Of a stretch of 64,000 nucleotides of DNA, positions 1 through 56,186 are shown in pieces. The notes beneath the pieces were generated by a model. The model worked only from the letters and a program-made list of their open reading frames with translations. It did no database searches and was not told where the DNA came from. Both the position numbers and the translations under genes were made by a program. Every line of letters begins with the position of its first letter. The stretch's first letter is position 1. Origin of the DNA: Patescibacteria group bacterium. Its GTDB lineage: Bacteria; Patescibacteriota; Minisyncoccia; UBA6257; GWB1-50-10. The stretch covers positions 2,836-66,835 of the forward strand of contig JAMCYI010000001.1 in the NCBI GenBank assembly GCA_023474215.1, written 5' to 3'.

Positions 1-50
1 AAGGCGCGCGGGGGCAGGGCGAGAAAATCGTCGAGAACGTCAGGCGCGCC

Positions 51-605
51 GTGGAGGCGGAGAAGCTTCCGGGCGTCGCGGTCTCGATGCGTGAAGTCGA
101 AACGGAGAACGGCGAAAAGCGGCCATTCCTCTCGCTCGCCAACGGCAGGCTCAAGGGGTACGAGATGCTCGTCTCGGCCTCCGATTACGGCAACCGCCTC
201 GACGTCGGCTGGTATCTCGTCTTCGATTCTCCCTGGGCGCTCTTGAAGCGCCGAAGGGCGGCCGAGCAGCCGAAAAATCCGGAGAAGAGTCCCTCCATTT
301 CAGACTCGCTGATTTCGCTCGCGGGGCCGGGTGTGAAGATAGCTCAGGCGGTGGGGCGGGCGGGAGCCGCGTCGGCGGCGAAGGACAGAAAAGCGGATGA
401 AGAGGCGGCCTTCGCCATGGCGAGCGAAGGGCAGGGCTACCGCGATCCGGAAATGCTCACCATAGCCGAGAAGCGCGAGCTCCAGAATTACGTGGGCATC
501 GTGCACGGCATCCTGAAAAGCGAAGTGAAAGCGGCGATGGACGAACTCAAGCTCGATTTCTCCAAAGTGGACACAAAGTCGCAGGGATTCCTGAACGTCG
601 ACTGA
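51..605 (+). CDS. hypothetical protein (184 aa), first gene of 4-gene module; stop overlaps start of downstream ATPase (TGA 603-605 / ATG 607)
   Basis: ORF track; translational coupling with 607..1986; no recognisable motifs. Confidence 0.5.
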   Translation: MEAEKLPGVAVSMREVETENGEKRPFLSLANGRLKGYEMLVSASDYGNRLDVGWYLVFDSPWALLKRRRAAEQPKNPEKSPSISDSLISLAGPGVKIAQAVGRAGAASAAKDRKADEEAAFAMASEGQGYRDPEMLTIAEKRELQNYVGIVHGILKSEVKAAMDELKLDFSKVDTKSQGFLNVD

Positions 606-606
606 C

Positions 607-1986
607 ATGGACGAACCGCGCGTCTTCGGTGGCGAACCCTCGGAGGACATGCTCGCGCTCGGGTACGCCTGGGGCACGGACGAGAAGGGCGAGCTGTGGC
701 AGCTGAAAGCCGTCGCGCAGGAAGATCGCCTGCTCCATTTCCACGTGATCGGCGCTTCGGGCACTGGCAAGACGAAATTCCTAGAATACCTGATTGGGCA
801 GGACATCAAGAACGGATTCGGCTTCGGTGTGATCGATCCCCACGGCGACCTCATCAGGGACGTGAAAGAGTGGCTCGCCCTTGAGGATGGAGACCGCGGC
901 GAGCATGTTGTCCTCGTCGACCCCACCGACAAGAAGCGGACGGTCGCCTTCAATCCCCTCGAACTGGCTGACGGCACGGACGCGGCGCGGCAGGCACAGG
1001 AACTCGTCGTCGCCTTTAAAAAGATATACGAGGATTCGTGGGGGCAGCGGCTGGAAGGGATTTTGCGGAACACTTTGATCGCCCTCATCGAAAACCGCCT
1101 CACGCTCCTCGAACTACCCCTCTTCCTGAGGGACGCCGCGGTGCGCGCGAAGCTGCTCCGCAACGTGAAAAGCGAAACGTGCCGCGATTTCTTCGAAAAC
1201 GACTTCGAGAAATGGAGCGAGCGCACGAGGCCCGAATGGACCCAGTCGACGCTGAACAAGGTGGACGCGTTCCTCTCGGACAGCCGGATGCGGCAGATGT
1301 TCGCGCCGGCCAAGAGCTCGTTCAGCTTCAGGGATATCATGGACGGCAGGAAAATCCTGCTCGTGAACCTTTCTAAGGGAATCCTCGGCGAGGAGAGCAG
1401 CAAACTCCTGGGCTCCCTGCTCCTCGCGAAAATCCAGATGGCGGCCATGCAGCGGGCCGAAGTCAAGGAGGACGAACGGGTGCCTTTCTATTTATACATC
1501 GACGAGTTCCAGAACTTCGCCGAGGAGAGCTTCATGCGCATGCTGGACGAGACGAGAAAATACCGGCTCGCACTCACACTCGCCCACCAGCACCTGGAAC
1601 AGGTGTCGTTCAAACTCCGGCCGTCGCTCATGAACTGCGGGCTCCAGGCGTGCTTCCGCGTCGCCCCGGCGGACGCCGAGGTCCTCGCCAGAGGACTTTT
1701 CGCCGGATTGTACGCCAACATCAACGAGCGGGAGCAGTACGTCCAGCTCCTTCAATCGCTGGAGCCCCGCGCCTGCTTCGTGAGGAACAATGCAAGAGGC
1801 GGGATCATACAAATTTCCGTCCCTCCGCCTTTCAAGGGGCCGGAACGCGCCGGGCGGGAGGCGGACGATGACAGGATCGGCAGCCGCTACCTGCGGCGGC
1901 GCGAGGACATCGACAAGGAATACAGGGAAAGGCGCAGAACGCTCGTCGGTGGAGAGGACGAGGAGAATTTCTACGACTCTTTTTAA
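607..1986 (+). CDS. TrwB/TraD/VirD4-family (type IV coupling protein-like; FtsK/HerA superfamily) P-loop ATPase, soluble (no N-terminal TM)
   Basis: Walker A GASGTGKT followed by VIDPHGDL (cf. TrwB GATGTGKS...IVDPNGDM); Walker B YLYIDEFQNF; RKYRLALTLAHQ motif; paralog at 6804..8072. Confidence 0.7.
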   Translation: MDEPRVFGGEPSEDMLALGYAWGTDEKGELWQLKAVAQEDRLLHFHVIGASGTGKTKFLEYLIGQDIKNGFGFGVIDPHGDLIRDVKEWLALEDGDRGEHVVLVDPTDKKRTVAFNPLELADGTDAARQAQELVVAFKKIYEDSWGQRLEGILRNTLIALIENRLTLLELPLFLRDAAVRAKLLRNVKSETCRDFFENDFEKWSERTRPEWTQSTLNKVDAFLSDSRMRQMFAPAKSSFSFRDIMDGRKILLVNLSKGILGEESSKLLGSLLLAKIQMAAMQRAEVKEDERVPFYLYIDEFQNFAEESFMRMLDETRKYRLALTLAHQHLEQVSFKLRPSLMNCGLQACFRVAPADAEVLARGLFAGLYANINEREQYVQLLQSLEPRACFVRNNARGGIIQISVPPPFKGPERAGREADDDRIGSRYLRRREDIDKEYRERRRTLVGGEDEENFYDSF

Positions 1987-1989
1987 AAC

Positions 1990-2886
1990 ATGGGGATTGG
2001 TAAGGCGCATTTTATAAGGGAAGCCGAGGCGGCGCGCCGGAAGGCGCGCGAGGCGAAGGCGGAAGCCAAGACGGCGCGGCGGCAGTACGAGGAAACGGCC
2101 GCCGGACTCCAGCCGCGGATCGACGAACTGAGCCGCGAGGCGGACGAGCTGGCAGCGAAGTTTAAGCGGCTCTACGAAGAATCGCAGGAGCACTATGACG
2201 CGCGGGAAGGAGGCGCGGCGAAAGAATTAGCCGAGGAAGGCCACGAAGCGGAGGACCGTTGCCGTCGCCTGAACGCCGAAGCGAACGCTCTCCGGAGAGA
2301 GCTCAAGGGACTTTACGACAGATACGAAAACCTGAACAGGGAGGCGGCGCGGTTCGAGGAGGACGCCGAAACGGCCGAGGAGCAGGGGTGGCTCGTGCGG
2401 GAAACCGATGTGACGGGCTTCGGCGGGAGCGTCGCCAAGAGCAATTTCGCGGTCGAGGAATTCCTCGATACGTTCCCGCAGGGGTTGTTCCATAAGATAG
2501 AGCGCATCGAGTACCGCGCCGCGCACGAGGAGTACGAGAATGAAGGGGCGGAAGGGGTAACGAGCAGGCCGAACGAGTTCAGCCGCAAGAGGAAAATAAG
2601 AATATTCCCGCACGATGACGAGGCGCATTTCAAGAAAACCATAAGCCACGAAATAGGCCACGTCGCGTTTTACGAATTCCTGACATGGGAGGAAAAAGAC
2701 AGATGGGCGGCCCTGGCCAAAAAACTGGCGCTGGCCGGCAAGCGCATCAGTGGGTACGCTTGGAATTCCAACGAGCACTTCTGCGAATGTTTCTCCACGT
2801 TTAAAGTGGAGCCACAGGTACTAAAAAAATTCGACGAAGAGGTCTATACTTTTATGGAAGACACATTCAAATCATTGCCAAAATGA
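1990..2886 (+). CDS. coiled-coil protein with C-terminal zincin-like HExxH motif (putative metallopeptidase, SprT/WLM-like guess)
   Basis: N-terminal ~150 aa E/R/A-rich predicted coiled coil; SHEIGHVAFYEF HExxH motif with downstream NEHFCECF; ATG 4 nt after upstream stop. Confidence 0.5.
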   Translation: MGIGKAHFIREAEAARRKAREAKAEAKTARRQYEETAAGLQPRIDELSREADELAAKFKRLYEESQEHYDAREGGAAKELAEEGHEAEDRCRRLNAEANALRRELKGLYDRYENLNREAARFEEDAETAEEQGWLVRETDVTGFGGSVAKSNFAVEEFLDTFPQGLFHKIERIEYRAAHEEYENEGAEGVTSRPNEFSRKRKIRIFPHDDEAHFKKTISHEIGHVAFYEFLTWEEKDRWAALAKKLALAGKRISGYAWNSNEHFCECFSTFKVEPQVLKKFDEEVYTFMEDTFKSLPK

Positions 2887-3230
2887 AAAAACTGAAACTG
2901 TACGGGAAAAAAAGCGCATCGGACGAGATAGACCGCGAGAACGCCGTGGCGGTGATCTATGTTACCGGCAAGAAAGAGCTGATGGTTGAATCGGCGCATC
3001 CGGAGGTAAAGCGCGATATAGAAGAAGCCATTGTGGAGCTCATCAAAAAAGGCGGGCCGAAGGTAAGGCGGTGCGTTGAAAAAAATGGAGAAACAGTCAG
3101 AATCGCCACGCCACAGAAACTCGGCGATGCGGATTTTCTTGAAGCGCTGCGGGAAGAATATCCTTTCTGGTCAAGAGAGTTCAGCGGGTACGAGATAAAT
3201 CACTTGGTTTCAAGGGTGGCAGATGAATAG
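2883..3230 (+). CDS. hypothetical protein (115 aa), last gene of module (ATGA overlap with upstream gene)
   Basis: ORF track; 4-bp overlap coupling. Confidence 0.45.
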   Translation: MKKLKLYGKKSASDEIDRENAVAVIYVTGKKELMVESAHPEVKRDIEEAIVELIKKGGPKVRRCVEKNGETVRIATPQKLGDADFLEALREEYPFWSREFSGYEINHLVSRVADE

Positions 3231-3265: not shown

Positions 3266-4084
3266 TTACTGGCTCTTCGGCAGCACGACGTTCCCGAGGT
3301 CGATGTCGGCGTTGTCCATGGTGAACGACTTCTGCACCGTGCCGTAGCCGTCAGCCGAAAACTCGAACGTGTAGCTTCCGGCTGGAAATGATCCCAGACC
3401 GCCGTTTTGCAGAGCATTGGCCCAGAGAATGCCCATAGAACCGCAGAAGTCGCCGGCTCGCGAACTCGTTTTCAGGAACCACTCGTCCGAGATATTGCAG
3501 TTCACGGCACCCCACTTGATCCCGTCGAGCTTGGTGCCAACGGCGTTTACGACATTGACCCCGACACTGCCCCAGCGGGTGAAGACAATCTTTCCGAGAT
3601 CAATTCCTTGGGGCGGGAGATAAAATTTCTCCTCGACGGGGGTAAGCCCCGCAAGTCCTCCTTTCTCGGTATCGGGCACTTCCATCATGTACGTTCCGGG
3701 CGGGAGCGTCGTCGAAGGATCGCTCTCGCTCTTCGCCGTCATGGCGAGAACGCCGTCTTTTATCACGGCTCTCCCCGCATACTCGCCCAGAGAGTCGTAT
3801 ATCCGTACATCCGCGCCGTTATCCCACGGATCGGTGATGTCGTCATACGACTTGCCGTACTGGTCGACGACATACGCCGTGACCGTTCCCGGCTTGACCT
3901 GCGGAGCGACCACAGGTTTCGCGGCTGAGACGCTGCTTCCCGGTGCCGCCTGCTTCGGAACAATCGCGGATGGCTGGTTTCCGGCGGACTGGCTCGGGGC
4001 ACCGCTGAAGGGATGGGCGTAATAGACGGACGCGCCCGCGACCACCACGGCGACCGCTACGTAAAGAACTATTTTCGTTTTCAT
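3266..4084 (-). CDS. membrane-anchored/secreted hypothetical protein (272 aa)
   Basis: N-terminal hydrophobic helix MKTKIVLYVAVAVVVAGASVYY; G/S/T/P-rich extracellular region. Confidence 0.55.
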   Translation of the reverse strand: MKTKIVLYVAVAVVVAGASVYYAHPFSGAPSQSAGNQPSAIVPKQAAPGSSVSAAKPVVAPQVKPGTVTAYVVDQYGKSYDDITDPWDNGADVRIYDSLGEYAGRAVIKDGVLAMTAKSESDPSTTLPPGTYMMEVPDTEKGGLAGLTPVEEKFYLPPQGIDLGKIVFTRWGSVGVNVVNAVGTKLDGIKWGAVNCNISDEWFLKTSSRAGDFCGSMGILWANALQNGGLGSFPAGSYTFEFSADGYGTVQKSFTMDNADIDLGNVVLPKSQ

Positions 4085-4094
4085 ATATGTAGAA

Positions 4095-4505
4095 TTATTC
4101 CGACTTTTGCTTCTCCTCTTTCTCCTCCTCCTTTTTCGCCCTGTACGGAATCATAGCCGTGTTGATGCCCATCTTCGCCATCCTTCCCCCTCCGGAGAAA
4201 ATTAGGAAGACGAAGAGGTACTGGAGCAGGGCGTCGCCCAGCTTCTCGGCGTTTTGGCCGACGGCCGCGAGCAGTTCGACGCTGTTCGTCGCCCCGAAAC
4301 GGGCGCCGCTCTCCGTGGCTGCGCCCGGCGCGACGTTGATCTTCGCTTCGAGTATCGAGGGGATGTCGTTCCCGCGGAACACCTGATACCCGTACCAGAC
4401 GCCGAAGCCGACAACGACCGCTCCGGCCGCGATGAGGATCAGGCTCAAGATGGCGTAATATTTTTTCTCGTGTTTCATGTCATTGAGTGTTGCCGACGGT
4501 CTCAC
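4095..4505 (-). CDS. small membrane protein
   Basis: TM helix YYAILSLILIAAGAVVVGFGVWYGY; K/E-rich tail. Confidence 0.45.
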   Translation of the reverse strand: MRPSATLNDMKHEKKYYAILSLILIAAGAVVVGFGVWYGYQVFRGNDIPSILEAKINVAPGAATESGARFGATNSVELLAAVGQNAEKLGDALLQYLFVFLIFSGGGRMAKMGINTAMIPYRAKKEEEKEEKQKSE

Positions 4506-4683
4506 TGTTCAACTCCGAAAGGCACTTCTCGACTTCGCTCGCGGGAACGGTGAACGCGGCGTATGGCTTGTACTCCTTGAAAGCGCAGTCTTCGTAATTG
4601 GGCGCGGGAGCGCTTTTGAGAAAAAAGGCGACAGCGACGAGCGCAGCCACAGCTATCGCTATGAGCCAGATAAGGGATTTCAT
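4480..4683 (-). CDS. small secreted protein (67 aa, signal peptide)
   Basis: MKSLIWLIAIAVAALVAVAFF N-terminus; operon position. Confidence 0.35.
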   Translation of the reverse strand: MKSLIWLIAIAVAALVAVAFFLKSAPAPNYEDCAFKEYKPYAAFTVPASEVEKCLSELNSETVGNTQ

Positions 4684-4916
4684 GTTCTAGACTCCTCCTT
4701 TGTCCGCGCGAGCCGGTTGATCAGGAGGCACACCGCGAAGTACAGCCACAGGGCGTTCCAGAATATCGCGGGCGCTATGAATTTCCGCGGATTATCGGAC
4801 GACAGGAAAAAAATGAATACCCCAGCAATCAGAAAGACGGCGAACAGCACCCAGTACGTAATGTGACGCTTTTTGGAAAGCGGAACTCCGAAAACTAGAC
4901 GTAATACTTTGTTCAT
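4680..4916 (-). CDS. small membrane protein (2 TM)
   Basis: two hydrophobic helices; 4-bp overlap with downstream gene. Confidence 0.4.
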   Translation of the reverse strand: MNKVLRLVFGVPLSKKRHITYWVLFAVFLIAGVFIFFLSSDNPRKFIAPAIFWNALWLYFAVCLLINRLARTKEESRT

Positions 4917-5178
4917 GTGTTCCTAACAAATAAACCCGACCTTTTTCTCTGGCCGGGTTCGACAAACTGCTCTGTGTGAAAACACAAAGCTCCCAGCCAG
5001 TGATGCCTTGCGGCACCCATACAGGTTTCCCCGTATGACCAGTAACGGAGCTCTGACTAGGAGCTTTCTATTCGTTACTGGTTTTTTGAACCCTGCCGCA
5101 GGCTTCCCTACGGGTTAGGTCTCATGTTTAGTTGTATGGAGTCAATATTAACACACTGGACAAGGAGGGCAAGACAAC

Positions 5179-5385: not shown

Positions 5386-6594
5386 TTATGTCAATTGCTG
5401 GAATATGCGACCCATCCTAACGGGGACCACTGCCCCATTCCTCCAAACGCGAAGAGTTACGGGGATATTATTGTTTTTGCGTAGAACGTCGATTAGATAT
5501 TTAAGGGAAAAATGCTGCTCATCAATAATATCCTCATTCACCCCGACAATGACATCCCCTGCTCTAAGTCCGAATTTCTCAGCGATTGATCCAGGTACAA
5601 CGGCGGGGTTTTTCTTGTTGTCCTGGAGGAGCGCACCATGGTCAATTGGTAAATTTCGCTCATTGGCGATACCCGCTGTCAGTGGAATATAGTGTATCCC
5701 GAGCTGTCGCTGGTGCAAATACTCTCTCTTCATCTCTCTAATCGCTTTAGACACTTCGTTCTTAGCTAGCTGTTTCTCGTACTTAGCTATCATCTGTTCC
5801 TCATCATACCCGAACATCTTATAAAACAATTCTTTGCATCCAAGTTTTATCCCTTCCCAAAATCCGACTTCCCGATAATATCCCCGGTGGTGTAACCGAT
5901 CGCCTATCTGTTTGAGAGACGTTTCTAGACGGTCTATAGACTCATCAATTAGTTCTTCTGAACGGTAAAAGGCAGTCCGTTCGTCGTATTCAACGTAGAT
6001 TTCTCTTTGCCATATCGTCTTATAAAGTTCACCTCTAATATTTTGACTCAGGTAGGAGTATCTTATTCGAAACGCCAAATCCTCGAGATGTTGAGACGAT
6101 TCCAGCGTTCTCCGGCCTCTCGACAGCTCAAGATATTCTTTCTCATCATCCGTAAGGGGATATTTCTTACGGAACAGTCCGTCTATTGGTCTACCGAGAT
6201 ACTTATAGTAAGAGCTGCGAGAGTTACCGAGCATTTTTTCCAATGGCTCAACGTAGCGATCAAAAAGGGTGTCTTCCTTGTCAACGTCCTCTCTGGAATC
6301 GTCGTCAAAAAACTCGGAGAGGCTAAGGAGCAAATCCATGACAGGATTGATAATCTCCCTAATAGTCTCCTTCCTTACCTCGCCTTTTTCTTGTAAATCC
6401 GCTGCAGCAGATTCCAATAGTTTCTTGTGTGCTTCTCTTAACTGCTGGATACCAGCGTTGACGATTTCGCTGTCTTTCTGCAGGAGGCGAACTTCGATGT
6501 CTCTTTTGGCGTTTCTCCAAACTACAATAACGCCGAGTACGCCAGCGAAAAATGCGATTACTATGTTAACGAGTAGGTTGAGTAAAGAACCCAC
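5386..6594 (-). CDS. membrane-anchored protein with C-terminal PDZ domain (402 aa), low-GC gene
   Basis: N-terminal TM LLVNIVIAFFAGVLGVIVVW; C-terminal GDVIVGVNEDII...VTLRVWRNG PDZ-like; AT-rich codon usage vs neighbours. Confidence 0.6.
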   Translation of the reverse strand: MGSLLNLLVNIVIAFFAGVLGVIVVWRNAKRDIEVRLLQKDSEIVNAGIQQLREAHKKLLESAAADLQEKGEVRKETIREIINPVMDLLLSLSEFFDDDSREDVDKEDTLFDRYVEPLEKMLGNSRSSYYKYLGRPIDGLFRKKYPLTDDEKEYLELSRGRRTLESSQHLEDLAFRIRYSYLSQNIRGELYKTIWQREIYVEYDERTAFYRSEELIDESIDRLETSLKQIGDRLHHRGYYREVGFWEGIKLGCKELFYKMFGYDEEQMIAKYEKQLAKNEVSKAIREMKREYLHQRQLGIHYIPLTAGIANERNLPIDHGALLQDNKKNPAVVPGSIAEKFGLRAGDVIVGVNEDIIDEQHFSLKYLIDVLRKNNNIPVTLRVWRNGAVVPVRMGRIFQQLT

Positions 6595-6803: not shown

Positions 6804-8072
6804 TTGGAAATCCTCTCCATCGGCAAAGCCGCCTCCCGCTCAGGAAGCGTCGAGTTCGGCATCAAATCTCCCGACCGGCGGCACCACATGTACCTCGTGG
6901 GCCAGACCGGCACCGGCAAGTCCACCTTCCTCAAGAATGCGGCGGTTCAAGACTTGCGGGCTGGGCGCGGCCTTGCGGTAATCGATCCTCATGGCGCGCT
7001 TGTCGAGGACATCCTGCGGTTCATTCCCAGGCGCCGGACGGGCGAGGTCGCGTATTTCAATCCGACTGACGCCGATCATCCCGTCGGCCTTAATATCCTC
7101 GAGGCGAGGAGCGAGAACGAGCGGAACCTGGTCGCCTCGTCCCTCATCTCGATTTTCAAATATCTCTGGAAGGACTTCTGGGGTCCTCGGCTGGAGCATG
7201 TTTTCCACAATGCAATCCTCGCCCTAATGGACACGCCGGATTCGACGCTCCTCAGCGTGTACCGGATGCTTGCCGACGACGCCTTCCGCGCGAAGGTCGT
7301 CGGGAGGGCGAAGGACCCGGTCGTGAGGTTCTTCTGGGAAGAGGATTTCGAGAAATATCCGGCGCGGTTCAAGAAGGAAGTGACGTCGCCGATCCAGAAC
7401 AAGATCGGGCAGCTCCTCACGAACAGCTGCATTCGGAACATCGTCGGGCAAGCCGAGAGCACGCTCGACCTGCGGTTCCTGATGGACAACCAGAGGATTC
7501 TCTTTGTAAATCTCGCCAAAGGCGTGATCGGCGAGGATAAGGCAAACCTCCTAGGATCGGTGCTCGTGACGAAACTGTACCTCGCGGCGCTCGAGAGGCA
7601 GACAGTGCCGGAGGACAAGCGCCGGGATTTCTACCTTTATATCGACGAATTCCAGAATTTTTCGACGGAAGCGTTTCCGTCGATGTTGTCCGAATCCCGC
7701 AAGTACCGGCTGAACCTGATTCTGGCGCACCAGTATCTCCGCCAGCTCCCGGAGAGCGTGCGCCACGCCGTCTTCGGGAACGTCGGGACGCTCTCCGCCT
7801 TCCGCGTCGGCGGGCTCGACGCAGAGGAGCTGGCCAAGGAATTCCAGCCGGACTTCGAGCGGGACGATCTCACCCATATCGAGAACTACCGCTTCTGCAC
7901 AAGGCTCATGATCGACGGCAAGCGGTCAAAGCCGTTCTCGGCTGAAACGCTCCCGCCTCCCCGCCTGCGGGGCGACGAGGCGGACGCCGAGACGGTCATA
8001 AGGATTTCTCAAGAGCGTTTTGCTTCAAAACGTGAAGACGTGGAACAAGCGGTCGAAAAATGGTTCGCCTGA
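6804..8072 (+). CDS. TrwB/TraD/VirD4-family P-loop ATPase, paralog of 607..1986 (apparent TTG start)
   Basis: GQTGTGKST...VIDPHGAL, YLYIDEFQNF, RKYRLNLILAHQ; roughly 40% identity to first copy by eye. Confidence 0.7.
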   Translation: MEILSIGKAASRSGSVEFGIKSPDRRHHMYLVGQTGTGKSTFLKNAAVQDLRAGRGLAVIDPHGALVEDILRFIPRRRTGEVAYFNPTDADHPVGLNILEARSENERNLVASSLISIFKYLWKDFWGPRLEHVFHNAILALMDTPDSTLLSVYRMLADDAFRAKVVGRAKDPVVRFFWEEDFEKYPARFKKEVTSPIQNKIGQLLTNSCIRNIVGQAESTLDLRFLMDNQRILFVNLAKGVIGEDKANLLGSVLVTKLYLAALERQTVPEDKRRDFYLYIDEFQNFSTEAFPSMLSESRKYRLNLILAHQYLRQLPESVRHAVFGNVGTLSAFRVGGLDAEELAKEFQPDFERDDLTHIENYRFCTRLMIDGKRSKPFSAETLPPPRLRGDEADAETVIRISQERFASKREDVEQAVEKWFA

Positions 8073-8418
8073 GGCGAATCCGTTTTTCGCGTCGCGATCT
8101 CGGCTGCGCGGCCTCGAGCTTTTTATTTTGCCTTCCCCCCACCGCGCGCAGCGAAAAGAGAAAAGCTCCGGCGAAGGAGAGCGGAGGCCCGAGGATGCCC
8201 CGAGCCCGAAGCGGAAGCGAGGGGTGAAGGGGCAATGAGGACATGTTGTCGGGGGCCGGAGCCGCAAGAACGGAGAGAAAATATTCCGTCGTTTGCGGGC
8301 GGATCCGCCTTCCGGAGGCAGTCGTTCCGGAACGACCCCTTGAACGACCCCTTTGCGAATCAGAAATTTCTGGTAAAATAGGTTCTGATACCGGCGCGTA
8401 AACTCACTAAACCAAAGG

Positions 8419-8446
8419 CCGGTGACTCTTGTCACCGGTTTTTGGT
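8419..8446 (+). terminator. rho-independent terminator ccggtgac-tctt-gtcaccgg + TTTTT
   Basis: perfect 8-bp GC stem and T-run; flanked by direct ggttctgat. Confidence 0.7.
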
Positions 8447-8632: not shown

Positions 8633-8660
8633 GACCAGCTCACTGCTGGTCTTGTTTTTT
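8633..8660 (+). terminator. terminator gaccagc-tcact-gctggtc + cTTGTTTTTT (overlaps copy 1 of 35-bp direct repeat)
   Basis: 7-bp stem + T-run. Confidence 0.6.
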
Positions 8661-8673
8661 GAAGATTCGAGCC
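8639..8673 (+). repeat. 35-bp exact direct repeat copy 1 (ctcactgctggtcttgttttttgaagattcgagcc)
   Basis: identical to 10314..10348. Confidence 0.9.
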
Positions 8674-9070
8674 AGGTCGACATTCAACCATAACCCTAGG
8701 CGATAAGAGCACTTCTAGGTGGTATAATAACAATGACTCAGGGGGGGTCAGTTTTGTTTATCGCGAAAACAAGATAGCTATGAAGTTACCAAAGAGGGTA
8801 GATGTAAAAAATTCAAAAGGTCGATATTATATTCTAACCTAACTCTCTTTTCACTACCATAAAGTGGGGGGGCGGCTAAGGTAAACATTATGAGTAAAGA
8901 AAACCCTCGAACGGAGCGGGAAAAGAAAAGAGCCCGTGAGGAAAAACAAATAAAAAAGACGGGGGACAAATTAAAGGCAAAGCGTCTCCAGCGGCATCAG
9001 CATCCGCTACCGCCACATTAAAGGTGTACATTGAAGAAATAAAAGCCGGATTAACTTGTTAACAAGTCAT

Positions 9071-9616
9071 ATGAGAAAAAAGATTGTTGTCGGCGCAATA
9101 ATTTTGGTGGCGATAGTCATAGCGTACATCGGTGTCAGAGTAGCGTATAACCAGTATGAATGGAATCATAGTAAAGCTACGATAGCTAGTCCTGCCGTAG
9201 TAAACCCAACTCTTACAGGTAGCGTTACCACTGTTGGAAACGGCATAAGCATTACAGCTGATGCCGTGCAATCATCCGGTGTTATTAGTCAGACTTCTGC
9301 TGGAGATAATTCCGTGCTCAACTTAGTCGGTCCGGCGTTAGTGAAAATAACGGTAAACACTTCAGGTAGTAACTGCGCACTGGCTAATGCGTTGGGCGGG
9401 AGCTTCATGTATGGTCAATTCAAAACGCCAATTAGCGGATCTGCCGAAAAAACAGTCAGTTTTCCAGCGGATGGGATAATGTTCATGAGCGGCGTGTGTA
9501 TGGATTCCAGCGGCAATCCTATTGGTTTACCCAATAGTTTGATCGTGGAAACCGTCTCTAAAGGTGAGACGTTGGATAACCACGGCGCTCTTCAGACGGT
9601 TAACATGCCATGGTGA
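9071..9616 (+). CDS. membrane-anchored extracellular protein, paralog A
   Basis: N-terminal TM KKIVVGAIILVAIVIAYIG; shares VQSSGVI / CMDSSGNP motifs with 9703..10296. Confidence 0.55.
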   Translation: MRKKIVVGAIILVAIVIAYIGVRVAYNQYEWNHSKATIASPAVVNPTLTGSVTTVGNGISITADAVQSSGVISQTSAGDNSVLNLVGPALVKITVNTSGSNCALANALGGSFMYGQFKTPISGSAEKTVSFPADGIMFMSGVCMDSSGNPIGLPNSLIVETVSKGETLDNHGALQTVNMPW

Positions 9617-9702: not shown

Positions 9703-10296
9703 ATGAACGAAAAACCGAGAAAGAAAATATGGAGACATTGGTGGTTCTGGACGTTGATAGCGGTTTGTATAATGGCCTTGGCGGTCGCAGTGGTGCGCCT
9801 GCGCAACCAGAACAAGGTGCATTTGCCCAGTGGTCTTCCACAGAAACCTGTCAGTATGCCGTTTACTGGTACGTATGCCGCCTCGTCAACCGGCTATGCC
9901 AGCATATCACTGAGTGTTTTACAGTCATCCGGCATCATCAAAGCCGGAAGTTATAACGGTAAGGTGGGTACGCCCATCGGAGTATCTGCGGAAATAATGG
10001 GGCCAGCCGAACTTGATGTGAGAATCGATTCGATGTCCCAGGTTTGTATAATCTCGCATTCACTAGATATTACAACCGGGAGGGGCACATCATTAACCCA
10101 TGCGGTTGAGGTAACGCTCAACGTGCCCCCAGGCGGATTCATTAACTACTACGTCTTGTGCAAGGATTCGAACGGCAGCTACCAACTTTCTGAGTTAACG
10201 GTTAATGTATGGAATCCTGCCACGTACGGTACGGAGGCGATGTCCAAAGAGGCATTGACGCAAATTAACCTACCTGGCCTTAACAGCGTTCCTTAA
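9703..10296 (+). CDS. membrane-anchored extracellular protein, paralog B
   Basis: N-terminal TM WWFWTLIAVCIMALAVAVV; LQSSGII, CKDSNGS motifs. Confidence 0.55.
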   Translation: MNEKPRKKIWRHWWFWTLIAVCIMALAVAVVRLRNQNKVHLPSGLPQKPVSMPFTGTYAASSTGYASISLSVLQSSGIIKAGSYNGKVGTPIGVSAEIMGPAELDVRIDSMSQVCIISHSLDITTGRGTSLTHAVEVTLNVPPGGFINYYVLCKDSNGSYQLSELTVNVWNPATYGTEAMSKEALTQINLPGLNSVP

Positions 10297-10313
10297 GGGC
10301 ACTAATATAAAGG

Positions 10314-10348
10314 CTCACTGCTGGTCTTGTTTTTTGAAGATTCGAGCC
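10314..10348 (+). repeat. 35-bp exact direct repeat copy 2
   Basis: identical to 8639..8673. Confidence 0.9.
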
Positions 10349-11703: not shown

Positions 11704-12311
11704 ATCGGCATTATTCTAGCTCCGCGCCGGGCGAATTCTTTGGATATCCTTTCCAAACCATCTAGGTCAGCTTGCGTTGCAACACTGGCATCCTTGAATA
11801 CATCTGCATGCATAAGGGTAAAGCCATCTATAAAAAGCTTGATTAGTGTGTCGGGAGATATGAACGCAACAGTATGGCCGAGTTTTTTAAATTTCTCATC
11901 CCAGTCCCTTATAACGTCCGTGCTTTCGGAACCGTTAGGCATATTTATGGAAACTCCATTTTCTGGCTCTGGCAAACCGAATGCGTGGACGATTGCACAA
12001 CGGAATTTATACAAAAACTTTTCGTTGACCAGTTTAAGATAAGGGTGGGTTTTATAGGTCGCATTGCTTTCGATAACGCAATATTTTTTCATCCACTCTT
12101 CCAAGAGAGGACGGCCGCCCAGACTGCGGTTATAGAAAGCGTTGTATAAGTTACTGGCGATTTCCAAAAACGAAAATGCTACTAACGCCCTCACCCTAAC
12201 GAACTGCTGATCTTTTCTGAGAACTCCAATTGCGCCGGATATCTCCTCAACCATTTCCCCTAGTCTATCATCGACATCTTTTTTCACCTCCTCGTATCTC
12301 TTGATATCCAT
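11700..12311 (-). CDS. hypothetical protein (203 aa) convergent with and overlapping the HEPN-like gene by 4 bp
   Basis: ORF track; no recognised motif. Confidence 0.45.
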   Translation of the reverse strand: MDIKRYEEVKKDVDDRLGEMVEEISGAIGVLRKDQQFVRVRALVAFSFLEIASNLYNAFYNRSLGGRPLLEEWMKKYCVIESNATYKTHPYLKLVNEKFLYKFRCAIVHAFGLPEPENGVSINMPNGSESTDVIRDWDEKFKKLGHTVAFISPDTLIKLFIDGFTLMHADVFKDASVATQADLDGLERISKEFARRGARIMPI

Positions 12312-12549
12312 GTTGTATGTTTTTAATTCTAAACCACCTCGTAGCTAGAGGGTAGTGGGAAATCCTCCTGCCCGTGCGCGGGAGTGGCGGGGCAGAGGCA
12401 GAACCGCGCGGAGAATGAACCATGATGTGCTAAGGAGGGAAAAATGGCGGAAGGGAAATTTTCTCCCGCCTTATCTTGTGCGCATCTTTCTCTTAAGATA
12501 ATTTCATAACGCTCCCCGTACTGAATTCGGATGTGTTAGAATATATGCA

Positions 12550-12951
12550 ATGAGCGAGGGGGAGAAAATCATAAATTGGCTAGAGAGAAATTGGTTTAGA
12601 TTAGGTGTACTTCTAATTCTGATTGCGATCGGAGCCGCTATTGTCTATTACATTGCAATCTTCTTACCGGACAGGCAATCTCAACTGGATCAGGAGAAGA
12701 AGGATGCTGTTATAGCCAACACGGTGTCCAGAAATAAATGCCTAGCTAATGCGGCGAGTGATTATCGAGACCTTTTAAAAGAGAACACCTACAGTGATGG
12801 AACCTTCAAGAGTACAAACGCTGAGCAGTATGTAGAAAATAAGTATACAGATGAGAAAGACGAATGTTTCAAGGAATACCCAATTAACGCGGATATCCAA
12901 TTGCCCTACGCGGACCCAACGAACATCTTCTATAATTTGCTTAACAAATAG
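12550..12951 (+). CDS. small membrane-anchored protein
   Basis: TM WFRLGVLLILIAIGAAIVYYIAIFL. Confidence 0.5.
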   Translation: MSEGEKIINWLERNWFRLGVLLILIAIGAAIVYYIAIFLPDRQSQLDQEKKDAVIANTVSRNKCLANAASDYRDLLKENTYSDGTFKSTNAEQYVENKYTDEKDECFKEYPINADIQLPYADPTNIFYNLLNK

Positions 12952-24079: not shown

Positions 24080-24216
24080 TGAGGGTTGATTTGGTATTTG
24101 ACATTTGAGCTTCGACATTATAGTATTGAATTGTTCCGTAGATAGCAGGGGCCGCAAGGCTTAATCATCCTGCCGAGGAAGAAACTTCTGGGAAGTCGGT
24201 CGATTCTTCTTGAAAA

Positions 24217-24238
24217 CTGCGGAAACGCAGATTTTTTG
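24217..24238 (+). promoter_or_regulatory. rplJ leader hairpin ctgcg-gaaa-cgcag + TTTTTTG (attenuator/L10-leader-like)
   Basis: GNRA hairpin + T-run 5 nt upstream of rplJ ATG. Confidence 0.5.
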
Positions 24239-24242
24239 TTAT

Positions 24243-24740
24243 ATGAAAACAAAAGCGCAAAAAAAGGAACAAATCGAAACGGGAAAAGGGGAACTCGATA
24301 AAAGCGAAACCGTCGTCTTCACCGATTTCACCGGCCTCTCGGCGAATGATTTGAACGTGTTTCGAAAACTCGTCCGGGGACTCGGGGGCGTCATGGTCGT
24401 CATGAAAAAGCGGCTCTTGACCCTCGCGCTGAAAGAGAAAGGCATCGACTTCGATGCAAAAAAACTCGAAGGCCAAGTCGGCGTCGTGTTTTCGCCGAAA
24501 GATTCGGTCGAGACCGCAAACGTCGTCTATCAATTCGGCAAACCGTTCAGAGCAAAAAATATCTTCAATATTTTGGGCGGCTTCGAGGTCAAAGGGAAGC
24601 GGTTCATGGAAAAAGCGGAAGTCGAAACGCTCGGTCAGCTTCCGTCACGCGAAGTCCTCCTGGGACAGCTTGCGTTCATGCTCACCGTTCCGATCAAGAA
24701 AGTTCTTTTCGTTTTGAACGAAAAGGCAAAACAACAATAA
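24243..24740 (+). CDS. rplJ: 50S ribosomal protein L10
   Basis: [32 protein letters not shown]. Confidence 0.9.
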
Positions 24741-54030: not shown

Positions 54031-54107
54031 GCGAGCCAAACACCCTCGCGAAGGCTAAGACTTGGGCGTCGCCCCGGAGACAGCCTGAGCGAGGGTGTTT
54101 GGCGAGC
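54031..54107. repeat. palindrome-enclosed element C1: 15-bp perfect arms GCCAAACACCCTCGC around 44-bp core
   Basis: core gcgaaggctaagacttgggcgtcgccccggagacagcctgagcg identical (inverted) to 56131..56175. Confidence 0.8.
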
Positions 54108-54149: not shown

Positions 54150-56111
<1,962 letters not shown>

Positions 56112-56118
56112 GAGCTCA

Positions 56119-56186
56119 CCGGACATCTCCCGCTCAGGCTGTCTCCGGGGCGACGCCCAAGTCTTAGCCTTCGCAGGAGATGTCCG
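56119..56186. repeat. palindrome-enclosed element C2: arms CCGGACATCTCC/GGAGATGTCCG around same 44-bp core in inverted orientation
   Basis: direct comparison with 54031..54107. Confidence 0.8.

Follow-up and report, generated by a model that had tools for sequence, protein, structure and literature searches.

We analysed a 64-kb stretch of DNA (the window) from a Patescibacteria group bacterium (contig JAMCYI010000001.1, positions 2,836 to 66,835), whose left end holds four consecutive genes on the forward strand: ORF1, ATPase1, ORF3 and ORF4 (ORF, open reading frame). Our preferred explanation, which as a whole we regard as reasonably probable, is that these genes lie midway along a mobile element of ~11-12 kb that is integrated in the Patescibacteria chromosome, with inverted repeats of ~300 bp at its ends and DNA mobilisation as its most likely function; the locus would be a mobilisable element with a MOBC relaxase and a type IV coupling protein (T4CP), unusual ends and twin motors. 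The role of the repeats, the mechanism and the function of ORF3 and ORF4 are what we infer from sequence within this explanation. Across the comparison loci (labelled L001, L003, L009 and so on; window numbering refers to the 64-kb stretch), the backbone runs in the order terminal inverted repeat (TIR), MOBC relaxase, ORF1 and ATPase1, a variable slot, a second ATPase (ATPase2) and TIR. Replic_Relax, ORF1, ATPase1 and ATPase2 are present in every member, and the backbone recurs in at least five other lineages, with the elements at different chromosomal sites. An earlier note on this DNA had suggested a mobilome remnant; we agree as to the mobilome but not as to the remnant, because the TIRs are near-perfect and the backbone is conserved in several genomes.

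In L003, TIR arms of 322 nt, 98% complementary and 10.65 kb apart, exactly bracket the genes from Replic_Relax to ATPase2. TIRs of 328 nt (97% complementary) and 294 nt (100% complementary) lie within an 804-kb contig of L009 and a 459-kb contig of L021, respectively; a TIR of at least 120 nt reaches the contig end in L020, and TIRs were also found in L100 and L102. The right TIR of the window aligns with both arms of L003 and with L009, and contains short G-rich direct repeats, a hairpin (GTCGTTCCGGAACGAC) with a third half-site (GAACGAC) and, at 8371, the conserved motif CTGGTAAAATAGGT, its end reading ...GTAAACTCAC. The plan common to the TIRs comprises short direct repeats, a hairpin with a third half-site, the motif GGTAAAATRGGT and, ~25 nt later, an end of CTCAC or CCAC; the L003 TIR has five tandem 8-nt GAAGGGGC repeats. 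The hairpin arms vary by lineage while the plan is retained (GTCGTTC/GAACGAC in the window and L003, GTCAATC/GATTGAC in L009, CCCCTTCAAAT/ATTTGAAGGGG in L021, and GTCGTT/TAACGAC in L100). The motif occurs once per arm and is confined to element loci; among GTDB representative genomes its exact form was found in the L009 genome only, and the TIR of the window was missed by the exact pattern because its variant differs at one base. The ATPase profile retrieved 80 metagenomic loci, of which L020 and L021 alone had TIRs, both together with Replic_Relax and ORF1, and no TIRs were found in the scanned Replic_Relax-bearing loci L030, L066 and L090.

The L003 relaxase matches the Pfam family Replic_Relax (PF13814) with 97 bits (2e-27) against a gathering score of 25.3, and matches to this family were also obtained in L009, L020, L021 and L100. 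The earlier note had reported no relaxase in the window, which is literally correct, but the C-terminus of a Replic_Relax protein lies ~2 kb upstream of it: for the window's genome only the last 65-69 residues are seen, at L001:1-210 on a longer Logan contig with identical genes, with a family-profile match at 8e-35. The MOBC relaxase superfamily is the one described by PF13814; in streptococcal integrative and mobilisable elements (IMEs) of that class, the relaxase is found with a serine integrase and a coupling protein of the VirD4 type (PMC5357655). The fold of the Replic_Relax family is PD-(D/E)xK (PMC3424549), the relaxase consisting of a winged helix and a nuclease of this fold, and an acidic motif of the PD-(D/E)xK type could be read in the relaxases of L003 (VPDAFF...FFLEADRST), L021 (ADAFF...CFLEADRAT) and L100 (PDAFF...FFLEADRGS). 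TraX of pAD1 binds five direct repeats located 70-120 bp from the nic site and forms no covalent intermediate (PMC12857230). By analogy, the TIRs resemble a MOBC origin of transfer (oriT), in having direct repeats spaced from a hairpin and a conserved motif.

The assignment of ATPase1 to the T4CP (TrwB/VirD4) family, which the earlier note had made from motifs, is borne out by profile comparisons. Its Walker A (GASGTGKT) and Walker B (YLYIDEFQ) positions are invariant in an alignment of eight ATPases, and it exceeds the Pfam thresholds for TrwB_AAD_bind (45.6 bits, 5.8e-12; cut-off 20.5), T4SS-DNA_transf (29.2 bits; cut-off 20.1) and DUF87, besides matching phrog_5156 at 7e-46. When its profile was compared with the PDB, the top solved relatives were DotL (3.6e-7) and TrwB (9e-7), both of which were reached by the profile alone, the single sequence giving no PDB match with phmmer. 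The NCBIfam cut-offs for coupling proteins (conju_CD1115, TraD and TraG) were missed, the best score being 41 bits versus 250. ATPase1 also carries an acidic C-terminal tail.

A hydropathy scan predicted no transmembrane (TM) helix in ATPase1 or ATPase2, and the earlier note had described an ATPase lacking a membrane anchor. This is accurate for the ATPase polypeptide alone, but not once ORF1 is considered. The reading frame of ORF1 is open back to base 3 of the window, so position 51, given previously as its start, is not the true one, although the ORF itself is real; the full gene encodes 257 aa at L001:1837-2610, and its N-terminus is a strongly hydrophobic TM helix (residues 3-21, TILILIMVVAMLLFIRAVF). 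The two loci closest to that of the window, L003/L004 and L007, have one gene for a 664-aa protein, in which a TM helix at the N-terminus and an ORF1-like region precede the ATPase. The split layout of the window is found in L009, L020, L021, L023, L024 and L100, where ORF1 is separate and directly upstream of the ATPase, with 1 to ~11 nt between the ORF1 stop and the ATPase start in most split lineages and an overlap in L024. The ORF1 family has conserved motifs, including an almost invariant C-terminus, GFLN(I/V)(S/T/D); against PDB sequences ORF1 gave only coiled-coil or chance matches. From these features we conclude that ORF1 and ATPase1 are a split VirD4/TrwB-type coupling protein, with its predicted anchor on ORF1. 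With at least six other lineages showing this split, it is a conserved arrangement and not a lesion, and to call the protein a soluble, anchorless T4CP is misleading. We also considered a pseudogene split of the ATPase and rejected it, the identical split being present in six other lineages.

ATPase2 is the paralogue that the earlier note had placed ~5 kb downstream, and the two proteins share 41% identity over 330 aa. It has the motifs GQTGTGKS and YLYIDEFQ, matches TrwB_AAD_bind with 50.4 bits (2.1e-13) and phrog_5156 at 3.5e-61, occurs in every element and has no anchor. Across elements the ATPases fall into two orthologue groups, A1 (ATPase1; 44-69% identity) and A2 (ATPase2; 62-82% identity), which are 33-43% identical to each other. 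These identities and the conservation of both groups point to an old duplication with both copies under selection. The wider family has more than 3,400 matches in Patescibacteria, many of them named 'type IV secretion system DNA-binding domain-containing protein', and further members are carried by large Bacillus phages and by Streptomyces, Bacillus and haloarchaeal plasmids; the closest plasmid match, from Sulfitobacter, is 40% identical and lies in an uninformative, transposase-disrupted context.

The slot between A1 and A2 varies in content. In the window, L003 and L007 it holds ORF3-ORF4, followed by leftward genes for signal-anchored and small membrane proteins, which form an operon, and by the gene of one larger membrane protein. 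In L009 the position of ORF3 is taken by the target gene of a diversity-generating retroelement (DGR; L009 11502-14328), followed by bAvd and a reverse transcriptase, and all 17 of the 17 mismatches between its variable region (VR, 12245-12375) and template region (TR, 12758-12888) fall at TR adenines. The slot contains unrelated genes in L021 and almost nothing in L020. Only in L009 is a large serine recombinase encoded next to the right TIR, on its outer side.

In the longer members, among which is the element of the window, the leftward operon comprises four signal-anchored or small membrane proteins, with a LOOT RNA ahead of it. The LOOT of the window lies 86 nt upstream of the small-membrane-protein operon and covers positions 1-121 of the covariance model, well above the gathering score of 46.4 bits. 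Syntenic copies scoring 81-84 bits were found at L003 8383-8497 (-), L007 5540-5663 (-) and L009 16268-16386 (-), each just upstream of that element's leftward operon, and none was found in the short elements L020, L021 and L100; the shortest elements (L020 and L100) have no envelope operon. The 127-aa and 67-aa membrane proteins have orthologues in L003, L007 and L009, and the 78-aa protein in L007 only. The 272-aa envelope protein had no credible Pfam match, and its position in L003 and L007 is occupied by a different signal-anchored protein of 188 aa; the slot of the 402-aa PDZ protein is likewise variable, with a protein of 255-262 aa there in L003 and L009. The text of Weinberg et al. 2017 says nothing on LOOT past the existence of the family.

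ORF3 combines an antiparallel long helical hairpin (residues ~5-137) with a C-terminal zincin domain of the anthrax-LF/PPEP/MtfA type, which carries the HEIGH motif and a conserved Glu in EHFCECF; the coiled coil and HEIGH domain noticed earlier in this 298-aa protein are thereby upheld. It shows HExxH and a downstream Glu ligand on a zincin fold, the combination looked for in M34/ATLF-like and M90 gluzincins. No signal peptide or TM helix was detected, there was no match at E<=1 to Pfam ATLF (PF07737) or Peptidase_M90, and full-length ORF3 gave only coiled-coil or chance matches to PDB sequences. The match to DUF1771 (PF08590) is marginal and coiled-coil rich (30.2 bits versus a gathering score of 28.7), and the Smr domain, which accompanies DUF1771 elsewhere, is absent. 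Among 22 relatives of ORF3, 20 matched DUF1771 (best 9.3e-11) and four reached ATLF weakly (best 5e-4), and one family member matched WXG100 at 4e-9. A word-indexed search retrieved three relatives. An exhaustive HMMER search yielded 253 clusters (50% identity), whose members are mostly ~300 aa long and share the architecture of ORF3; among GTDB representative genomes none was detected. Members of the family hardly vary in HExGH or in the Glu of E(D/E)FCECF, but the L100 copy has lost HExxH (MASMIGG) and is nevertheless retained.

Every ORF3 homologue examined (L003, L007, L100, L103, L104, L105 and L106-L108) is followed, usually with an overlap, by a homologue of ORF4, whose family of 34 members includes none with a Pfam domain or a name; ORF4 had no relative among PDB sequences. 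Four lineages (the window, L003/L007, L100 and L103) have the pair within an element or beside a coupling-type ATPase; in another four (L104, L105, L106/107 and L108) it stands alone, and its neighbours are genes for housekeeping, the cell wall or surface proteins. Elements with the same backbone lack it in L009, L020 and L021. As ORF3-ORF4 is found both on elements and alone, it is a separable cassette that elements often carry. The idea of an NTPase-protease module, raised in the earlier note, is not sustained by this distribution, and neither is the four-gene operon as a functional unit, which we rejected: the ORF1-ATPase1 and ORF3-ORF4 pairs are inherited independently. ORF3-ORF4 is probably a cytoplasmic protease whose partner serves as regulator, inhibitor or addiction-type component, the two being carried as cargo outside the transfer motor; it is less likely that ORF3 is an effector for export and ORF4 its immunity protein or chaperone.

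In the mechanism that we propose, the relaxase would recognise the TIR repeats and cut there, near the hairpin or the conserved motif. The membrane complex of ORF1 and ATPase1, together with ATPase2, would receive and pump the DNA, which would be exported either via the host's resident chromosomal type IV secretion system (T4SS) or via the element's own envelope proteins, in a TraB-/TdtA-like push. ORF3-ORF4 would travel as a passenger protease-partner module.

Several observations weigh against a mobilisable element of this kind. No VirB4, VirB6/8-like or other T4SS gene was found, in agreement with the earlier note, in a non-exhaustive scan of ~30 window ORFs (the element's own genes and 20 larger ORFs outside it, mostly housekeeping). 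A simple hydropathy scan found no N-terminal TM helix in ORF1 of L020 and L021, and in the L100 homologue (L100 6899-7549), which lay outside that scan, a zinc-ribbon-like CxxC...CxxC (CAKCG...CTKCG) stands where other lineages have the TM helix. No convincing target-site duplication was found at three element copies, which showed only short T-rich similarities and partly conserved bases past the repeat, and no integrase, transposase or recombinase was found between the TIRs, so that the integration route of a TIR-bounded element is unexplained. To our knowledge TIRs are not a trait of known IMEs or integrative and conjugative elements, which have direct att repeats, and we know of no precedent in mobilisable elements for the role of a second coupling-type ATPase. 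For the window's genome the right junction alone was seen, the left TIR lying outside the window, and integration here rests on that junction; the locus tag of ORF4, M1604_00040, suggests by NCBI numbering that the contig starts ~7 genes upstream, and the left host junction may therefore be unassembled.

A more far-reaching version of the DNA-mobilisation explanation, which we put forward only tentatively, is that these loci are an undescribed class of transposon-like Patescibacteria transfer elements, in which a MOBC relaxase with a restriction-endonuclease fold acts at two inverted oriT-like ends, two anciently duplicated coupling-type ATPases, one tethered to the membrane by the split ORF1 adaptor, move the DNA with no mating channel encoded on the element, and LOOT controls the envelope operon. 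Were it true, it would account for part of the orphan VirD4 homologues and give LOOT its first genomic context.

A rather unlikely alternative is a self-transmissible exporter independent of any T4SS, in which the twin ATPases and small membrane proteins would push double-stranded DNA cut by the relaxase at both TIRs, to be taken up by competent Patescibacteria. The element has two conserved motors, two identical ends and four envelope proteins encoded beside the ATPases, and T4SS genes were absent from it and from the ORFs scanned; MOBC relaxases, moreover, work without a covalent DNA intermediate. TraB recognises 8-bp repeats, which the tandem 8-nt repeats of the L003 TIR recall. ICETh1 (14 kb) offers a parallel, in that its FtsK-HerA ATPase is membrane-associated and is accompanied by nucleases of the restriction and NurA types (PMC5365140). 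However, the ATPases belong to the TrwB/VirD4 clade and not to FtsK/TraB or HerA/TdtA, the envelope operon is missing from L020 and L100, and Patescibacteria usually possess a usable chromosomal T4SS (PMC12102498). Double-strand cutting, too, finds no support in these data.

The position of ORF3 could instead suggest protein export, in which the tethered ATPase would recognise the ORF3 hairpin and export the zincin as an effector or toxin, with ORF4 as chaperone or immunity protein, comparable to EssC of the type VII secretion system with its WXG/LXG toxins or to T4CP-dependent effectors. Polymorphic toxin-immunity pairs have the layout seen here: the first gene encodes a hairpin N-domain and an enzymatic C-domain, and a small gene overlaps its end. 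ORF3 directly follows ATPase1 in the window, L003, L007 and L103 and lies inside the element in L100, the WXG100 match of one family member fits a substrate of this type, and the same slot in L009 holds the DGR-diversified protein, typically a binding protein. Yet in the four lineages with the cassette amid cell-wall or housekeeping genes no ATPase is nearby, the L100 copy was kept despite the loss of HExxH, ORF3 has no identified secretion signal, and the elements without ORF3 (L009, L020 and L021) retain both ATPases. We therefore consider this reading improbable.

Anti-phage defence, in which an NTPase (a motor like mad8 of MADS or like DndH) would be coupled to a protease effector, seems to us more improbable still, although the earlier note had raised a defence role. 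ATPase1 matches PADLOC mad8 (2.8e-13) and DndH (1.3e-6), restriction-modification genes form the right flanks of L003, L020 and L021, and an AbiEii gene adjoins the cassette in L103. The PADLOC matches, however, are confined to the generic ATPase domain and do not surpass the T4CP matches; other MADS or Dnd components are absent, ten neighbouring proteins had no PADLOC match, the ATPase and the protease are not inherited together, and the relaxase, the TIRs and the patchy insertion sites indicate a mobile element. Least probable of all is a small membrane-containing virus or provirus whose ATPases package a TIR-bearing genome, or, as a variant, a decayed remnant in which the ATPase gene is broken. 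Tectivirus- and polinton-like elements, too, are marked by TIRs, small size and ATPases of the FtsK-HerA superfamily, phrog_5156 matches both ATPases, and ATPase homologues occur in large Bacillus phages and IMG/VR contigs, but genes for a capsid, a polymerase or lysis were not recognised, the ATPases group with TrwB and not with the A32/packaging clade, the phage homologues belong to tailed phages of 56-500 kb with terminases of their own, and the recurrence of the ORF1/ATPase split in at least six other lineages leaves no lesion for the remnant variant.

The features of the element in the window are collected in Table 1. The listed forward-strand ORFs were 51..605, 607..1986, 1990..2886 and 2883..3230, and their close spacing, described earlier as overlaps or gaps of 1-4 nt, was seen at each junction: TGA-C-ATG (1-nt gap), TAA-AAC-ATG (3-nt gap) and ATGA (4-nt overlap). 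GC is ~0.6 in the four-gene region versus ~0.5 across the remaining window, and long antisense ORFs arise in GC-rich DNA; the four forward-strand ORFs are genuine genes and not chance, because each has homologues in syntenic loci.

Table 1. Features of the element within the window (window numbering).
Feature	Position	Strand	Basis or remark
ORF1, 3' part	1..605	+	C-terminal 200 of 257 codons; start and TM helix upstream of window
ATPase1, 459 aa, VirD4/TrwB-family (FtsK-HerA superfamily) P-loop ATPase	607..1986	+	Pfam, phrog and PDB profile matches
ORF3, 298 aa, DUF1771-like hairpin and zincin domain	1990..2886	+	HEIGH motif, fold
ORF4, 115 aa, small ORF3 partner, unannotated family	2883..3230	+	Homologue after each examined ORF3 homologue
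272-aa envelope protein, N-terminal signal-anchor, beta-rich ectodomain	3266..4084	-	TM residues 5-23; last gene of leftward operon
Three small membrane proteins, overlapping genes	4095..4916	-	TM predictions
Small membrane protein, 127-136 aa	4095-4505	-	TM prediction
Small membrane protein, 67 aa	4480-4683	-	TM prediction
Small membrane protein, 78 aa	4680-4916	-	TM prediction
LOOT RNA (Rfam RF03000), full length	5002..5121	-	88.6 bits, E 1.8e-15
402-aa membrane-anchored protein, C-terminal PDZ domain	5386..6594	-	PDZ_6 1.7e-8; TM residues 7-25
ATPase2, soluble VirD4/TrwB-family ATPase	6804..8072	+	Pfam, phrog; ATPase1 paralogue
Right TIR, 278 nt	8130..8407	n/a	Aligned to L003 and L009 TIRs

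Some further observations concern the DNA at and beyond the right TIR. In the first ~40 nt beyond the right TIR, L009, L021, L102 and L003 share a partly conserved stretch (...TTATTTTCCCCAAAATTTTCACGGG... and variants) that looks like the TIR motif in inverted orientation, which would mean either asymmetry of the true end or a preference of the element for target sites of this kind. Immediately past the right TIR of the window, at ~8419-8445, there is a terminator-like hairpin (CCGGTGAC-TCTT-GTCACCGG, then TTTTT). Outside the right TIR in three independent copies (L003 11538-15829, L020 7024-13623 and L021 16698-21283) lie restriction-modification or related genes, among them an N6_N4 methylase, Tsp45I, a type III Res helicase, a probable DUF262-type protein (assigned without a scan) and a Dam-like methylase; the corresponding flank of the window (~8.4-13 kb) has a low GC of 0.44-0.48 and unannotated genes. 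A perfect 36-nt direct repeat (GCTCACTGCTGGTCTTGTTTTTTGAAGATTCGAGCC) just beyond the right TIR, at 8638-8673 and 10313-10348, brackets two paralogous signal-anchored proteins (9056-9616 and 9703-10296) with a weak likeness (E ~1e-5) to a 318-aa envelope protein of the L003 and L009 elements.

Many other ATPases of the family in metagenomic loci (L026, L029, L048, L049, L060 and L067) are ~800-1,100 aa and form tandem pairs of long genes; these loci have no Replic_Relax, ORF1 or TIRs and represent a different, apparently commoner arrangement. Homologues of ~630-667 aa carry AlbA_2 (PF04326) N-terminal domains. The remaining window holds ordinary chromosomal genes (GyrB, SecA, LepA, UvrA/B/C, PBP, a Mur ligase and tRNAs). 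Within it, uvrB (54150-56111) is flanked on both sides by a perfect 44-nt inverted repeat (54048-54091 and 56131-56174), and the ORF at 24210-24740 has upstream of it a ribosomal protein L10 leader (RF00557, 66 bits) at 24118-24246 (+), as is ordinary for a chromosome.

Patescibacteria are ultra-small bacteria that account for much of bacterial diversity, but their mobile elements have barely been described. A survey of 2,918 Patescibacteria genomes (Quinonero-Coronel et al. 2025) counted 5,713 VirD4-like genes, 148 of them near virB4, together with 58 MOBC relaxases; 39 relaxases of all classes were near a t4cp, and the function of the VirD4-like genes was left open (PMC12102498). That survey left ~2 VirD4-like genes per genome, far from a T4SS, unexplained, and elements such as those described here may help explain these thousands of orphan conjugation-type ATPase genes. 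Some orphan VirD4 genes are conserved pairs accompanied by a MOBC relaxase inside inverted-repeat elements, which makes for a concrete, testable transfer unit, and the inverted ends pose a mechanistic puzzle because they come without a recognisable recombinase. The analysis also gives the orphan structured RNA LOOT a defined genetic context and defines an unannotated zincin-plus-partner cassette that recurs on elements and in chromosomes. The interest of the locus thus lies mainly in the element class and in Patescibacteria gene transfer, not in an 'NTPase-protease system'. The protein families, the pairing of MOBC relaxases with T4CPs and the abundance of orphan T4CPs in Patescibacteria are already known; the literature searched gave us no account of a unit bounded by TIRs, of the conserved pairing of A1 with A2, of ORF1 as a split adaptor, of the ORF3-ORF4 cassette or of a link to LOOT.

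Among known systems, the zincin of the cassette can be compared with anthrax lethal factor and the Pro-Pro endopeptidases (M34, ATLF-like) and with MtfA (M90), to which ORF3 is 12-19% identical with no Pfam ATLF match. Unlike these proteins it has no signal peptide or toxin-delivery domain, and has instead a DUF1771-like hairpin, an obligatory small partner and one lineage without HExxH. ICETh1 of Thermus thermophilus (TdtA transjugation; PMC5365140) and the Streptomyces TraB/clt plasmids are, like the elements here, small and equipped with a motor of the FtsK-HerA superfamily, and they move DNA without a T4SS; their ATPases are of different clades, however, ICETh1 has 47-bp direct repeats and a site-specific recombinase, and DNA pushing by the present elements would be an analogy.

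ATPase1 shares with TrwB (R388), VirD4 and DotL the Walker A/B ATPase domain, a TrwB_AAD_bind match above threshold, the acidic C-terminal tail and linkage to a relaxase. It differs in that the ATPase polypeptide has no TM helix, a single one being supplied by ORF1 in place of the usual N-terminal TM domain, in NCBIfam scores far under the cut-offs, in having no adjacent VirB4 system, and in the duplication of the gene. The element resembles streptococcal IME_Class_8 (Coluzzi et al. 2017, PMC5357655) in being small and chromosomal, with a Replic_Relax/MOBC relaxase beside a VirD4-family ATPase and no mating-pore genes of its own, and a large serine recombinase, the type found in that class, also adjoins the element in L009. 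IMEs carry their own integrase/excision module and direct att repeats, whereas here the repeats are inverted, ~300 bp long, and enclose no recombinase; two coupling-type ATPases, an anchor on a separate gene, the LOOT RNA with its envelope operon and a Patescibacteria host set the element further apart. Most Patescibacteria possess a chromosomal T4SS, and the orphan VirD4-like genes of this phylum (PMC12102498) belong to the same protein family as the two ATPases described here.

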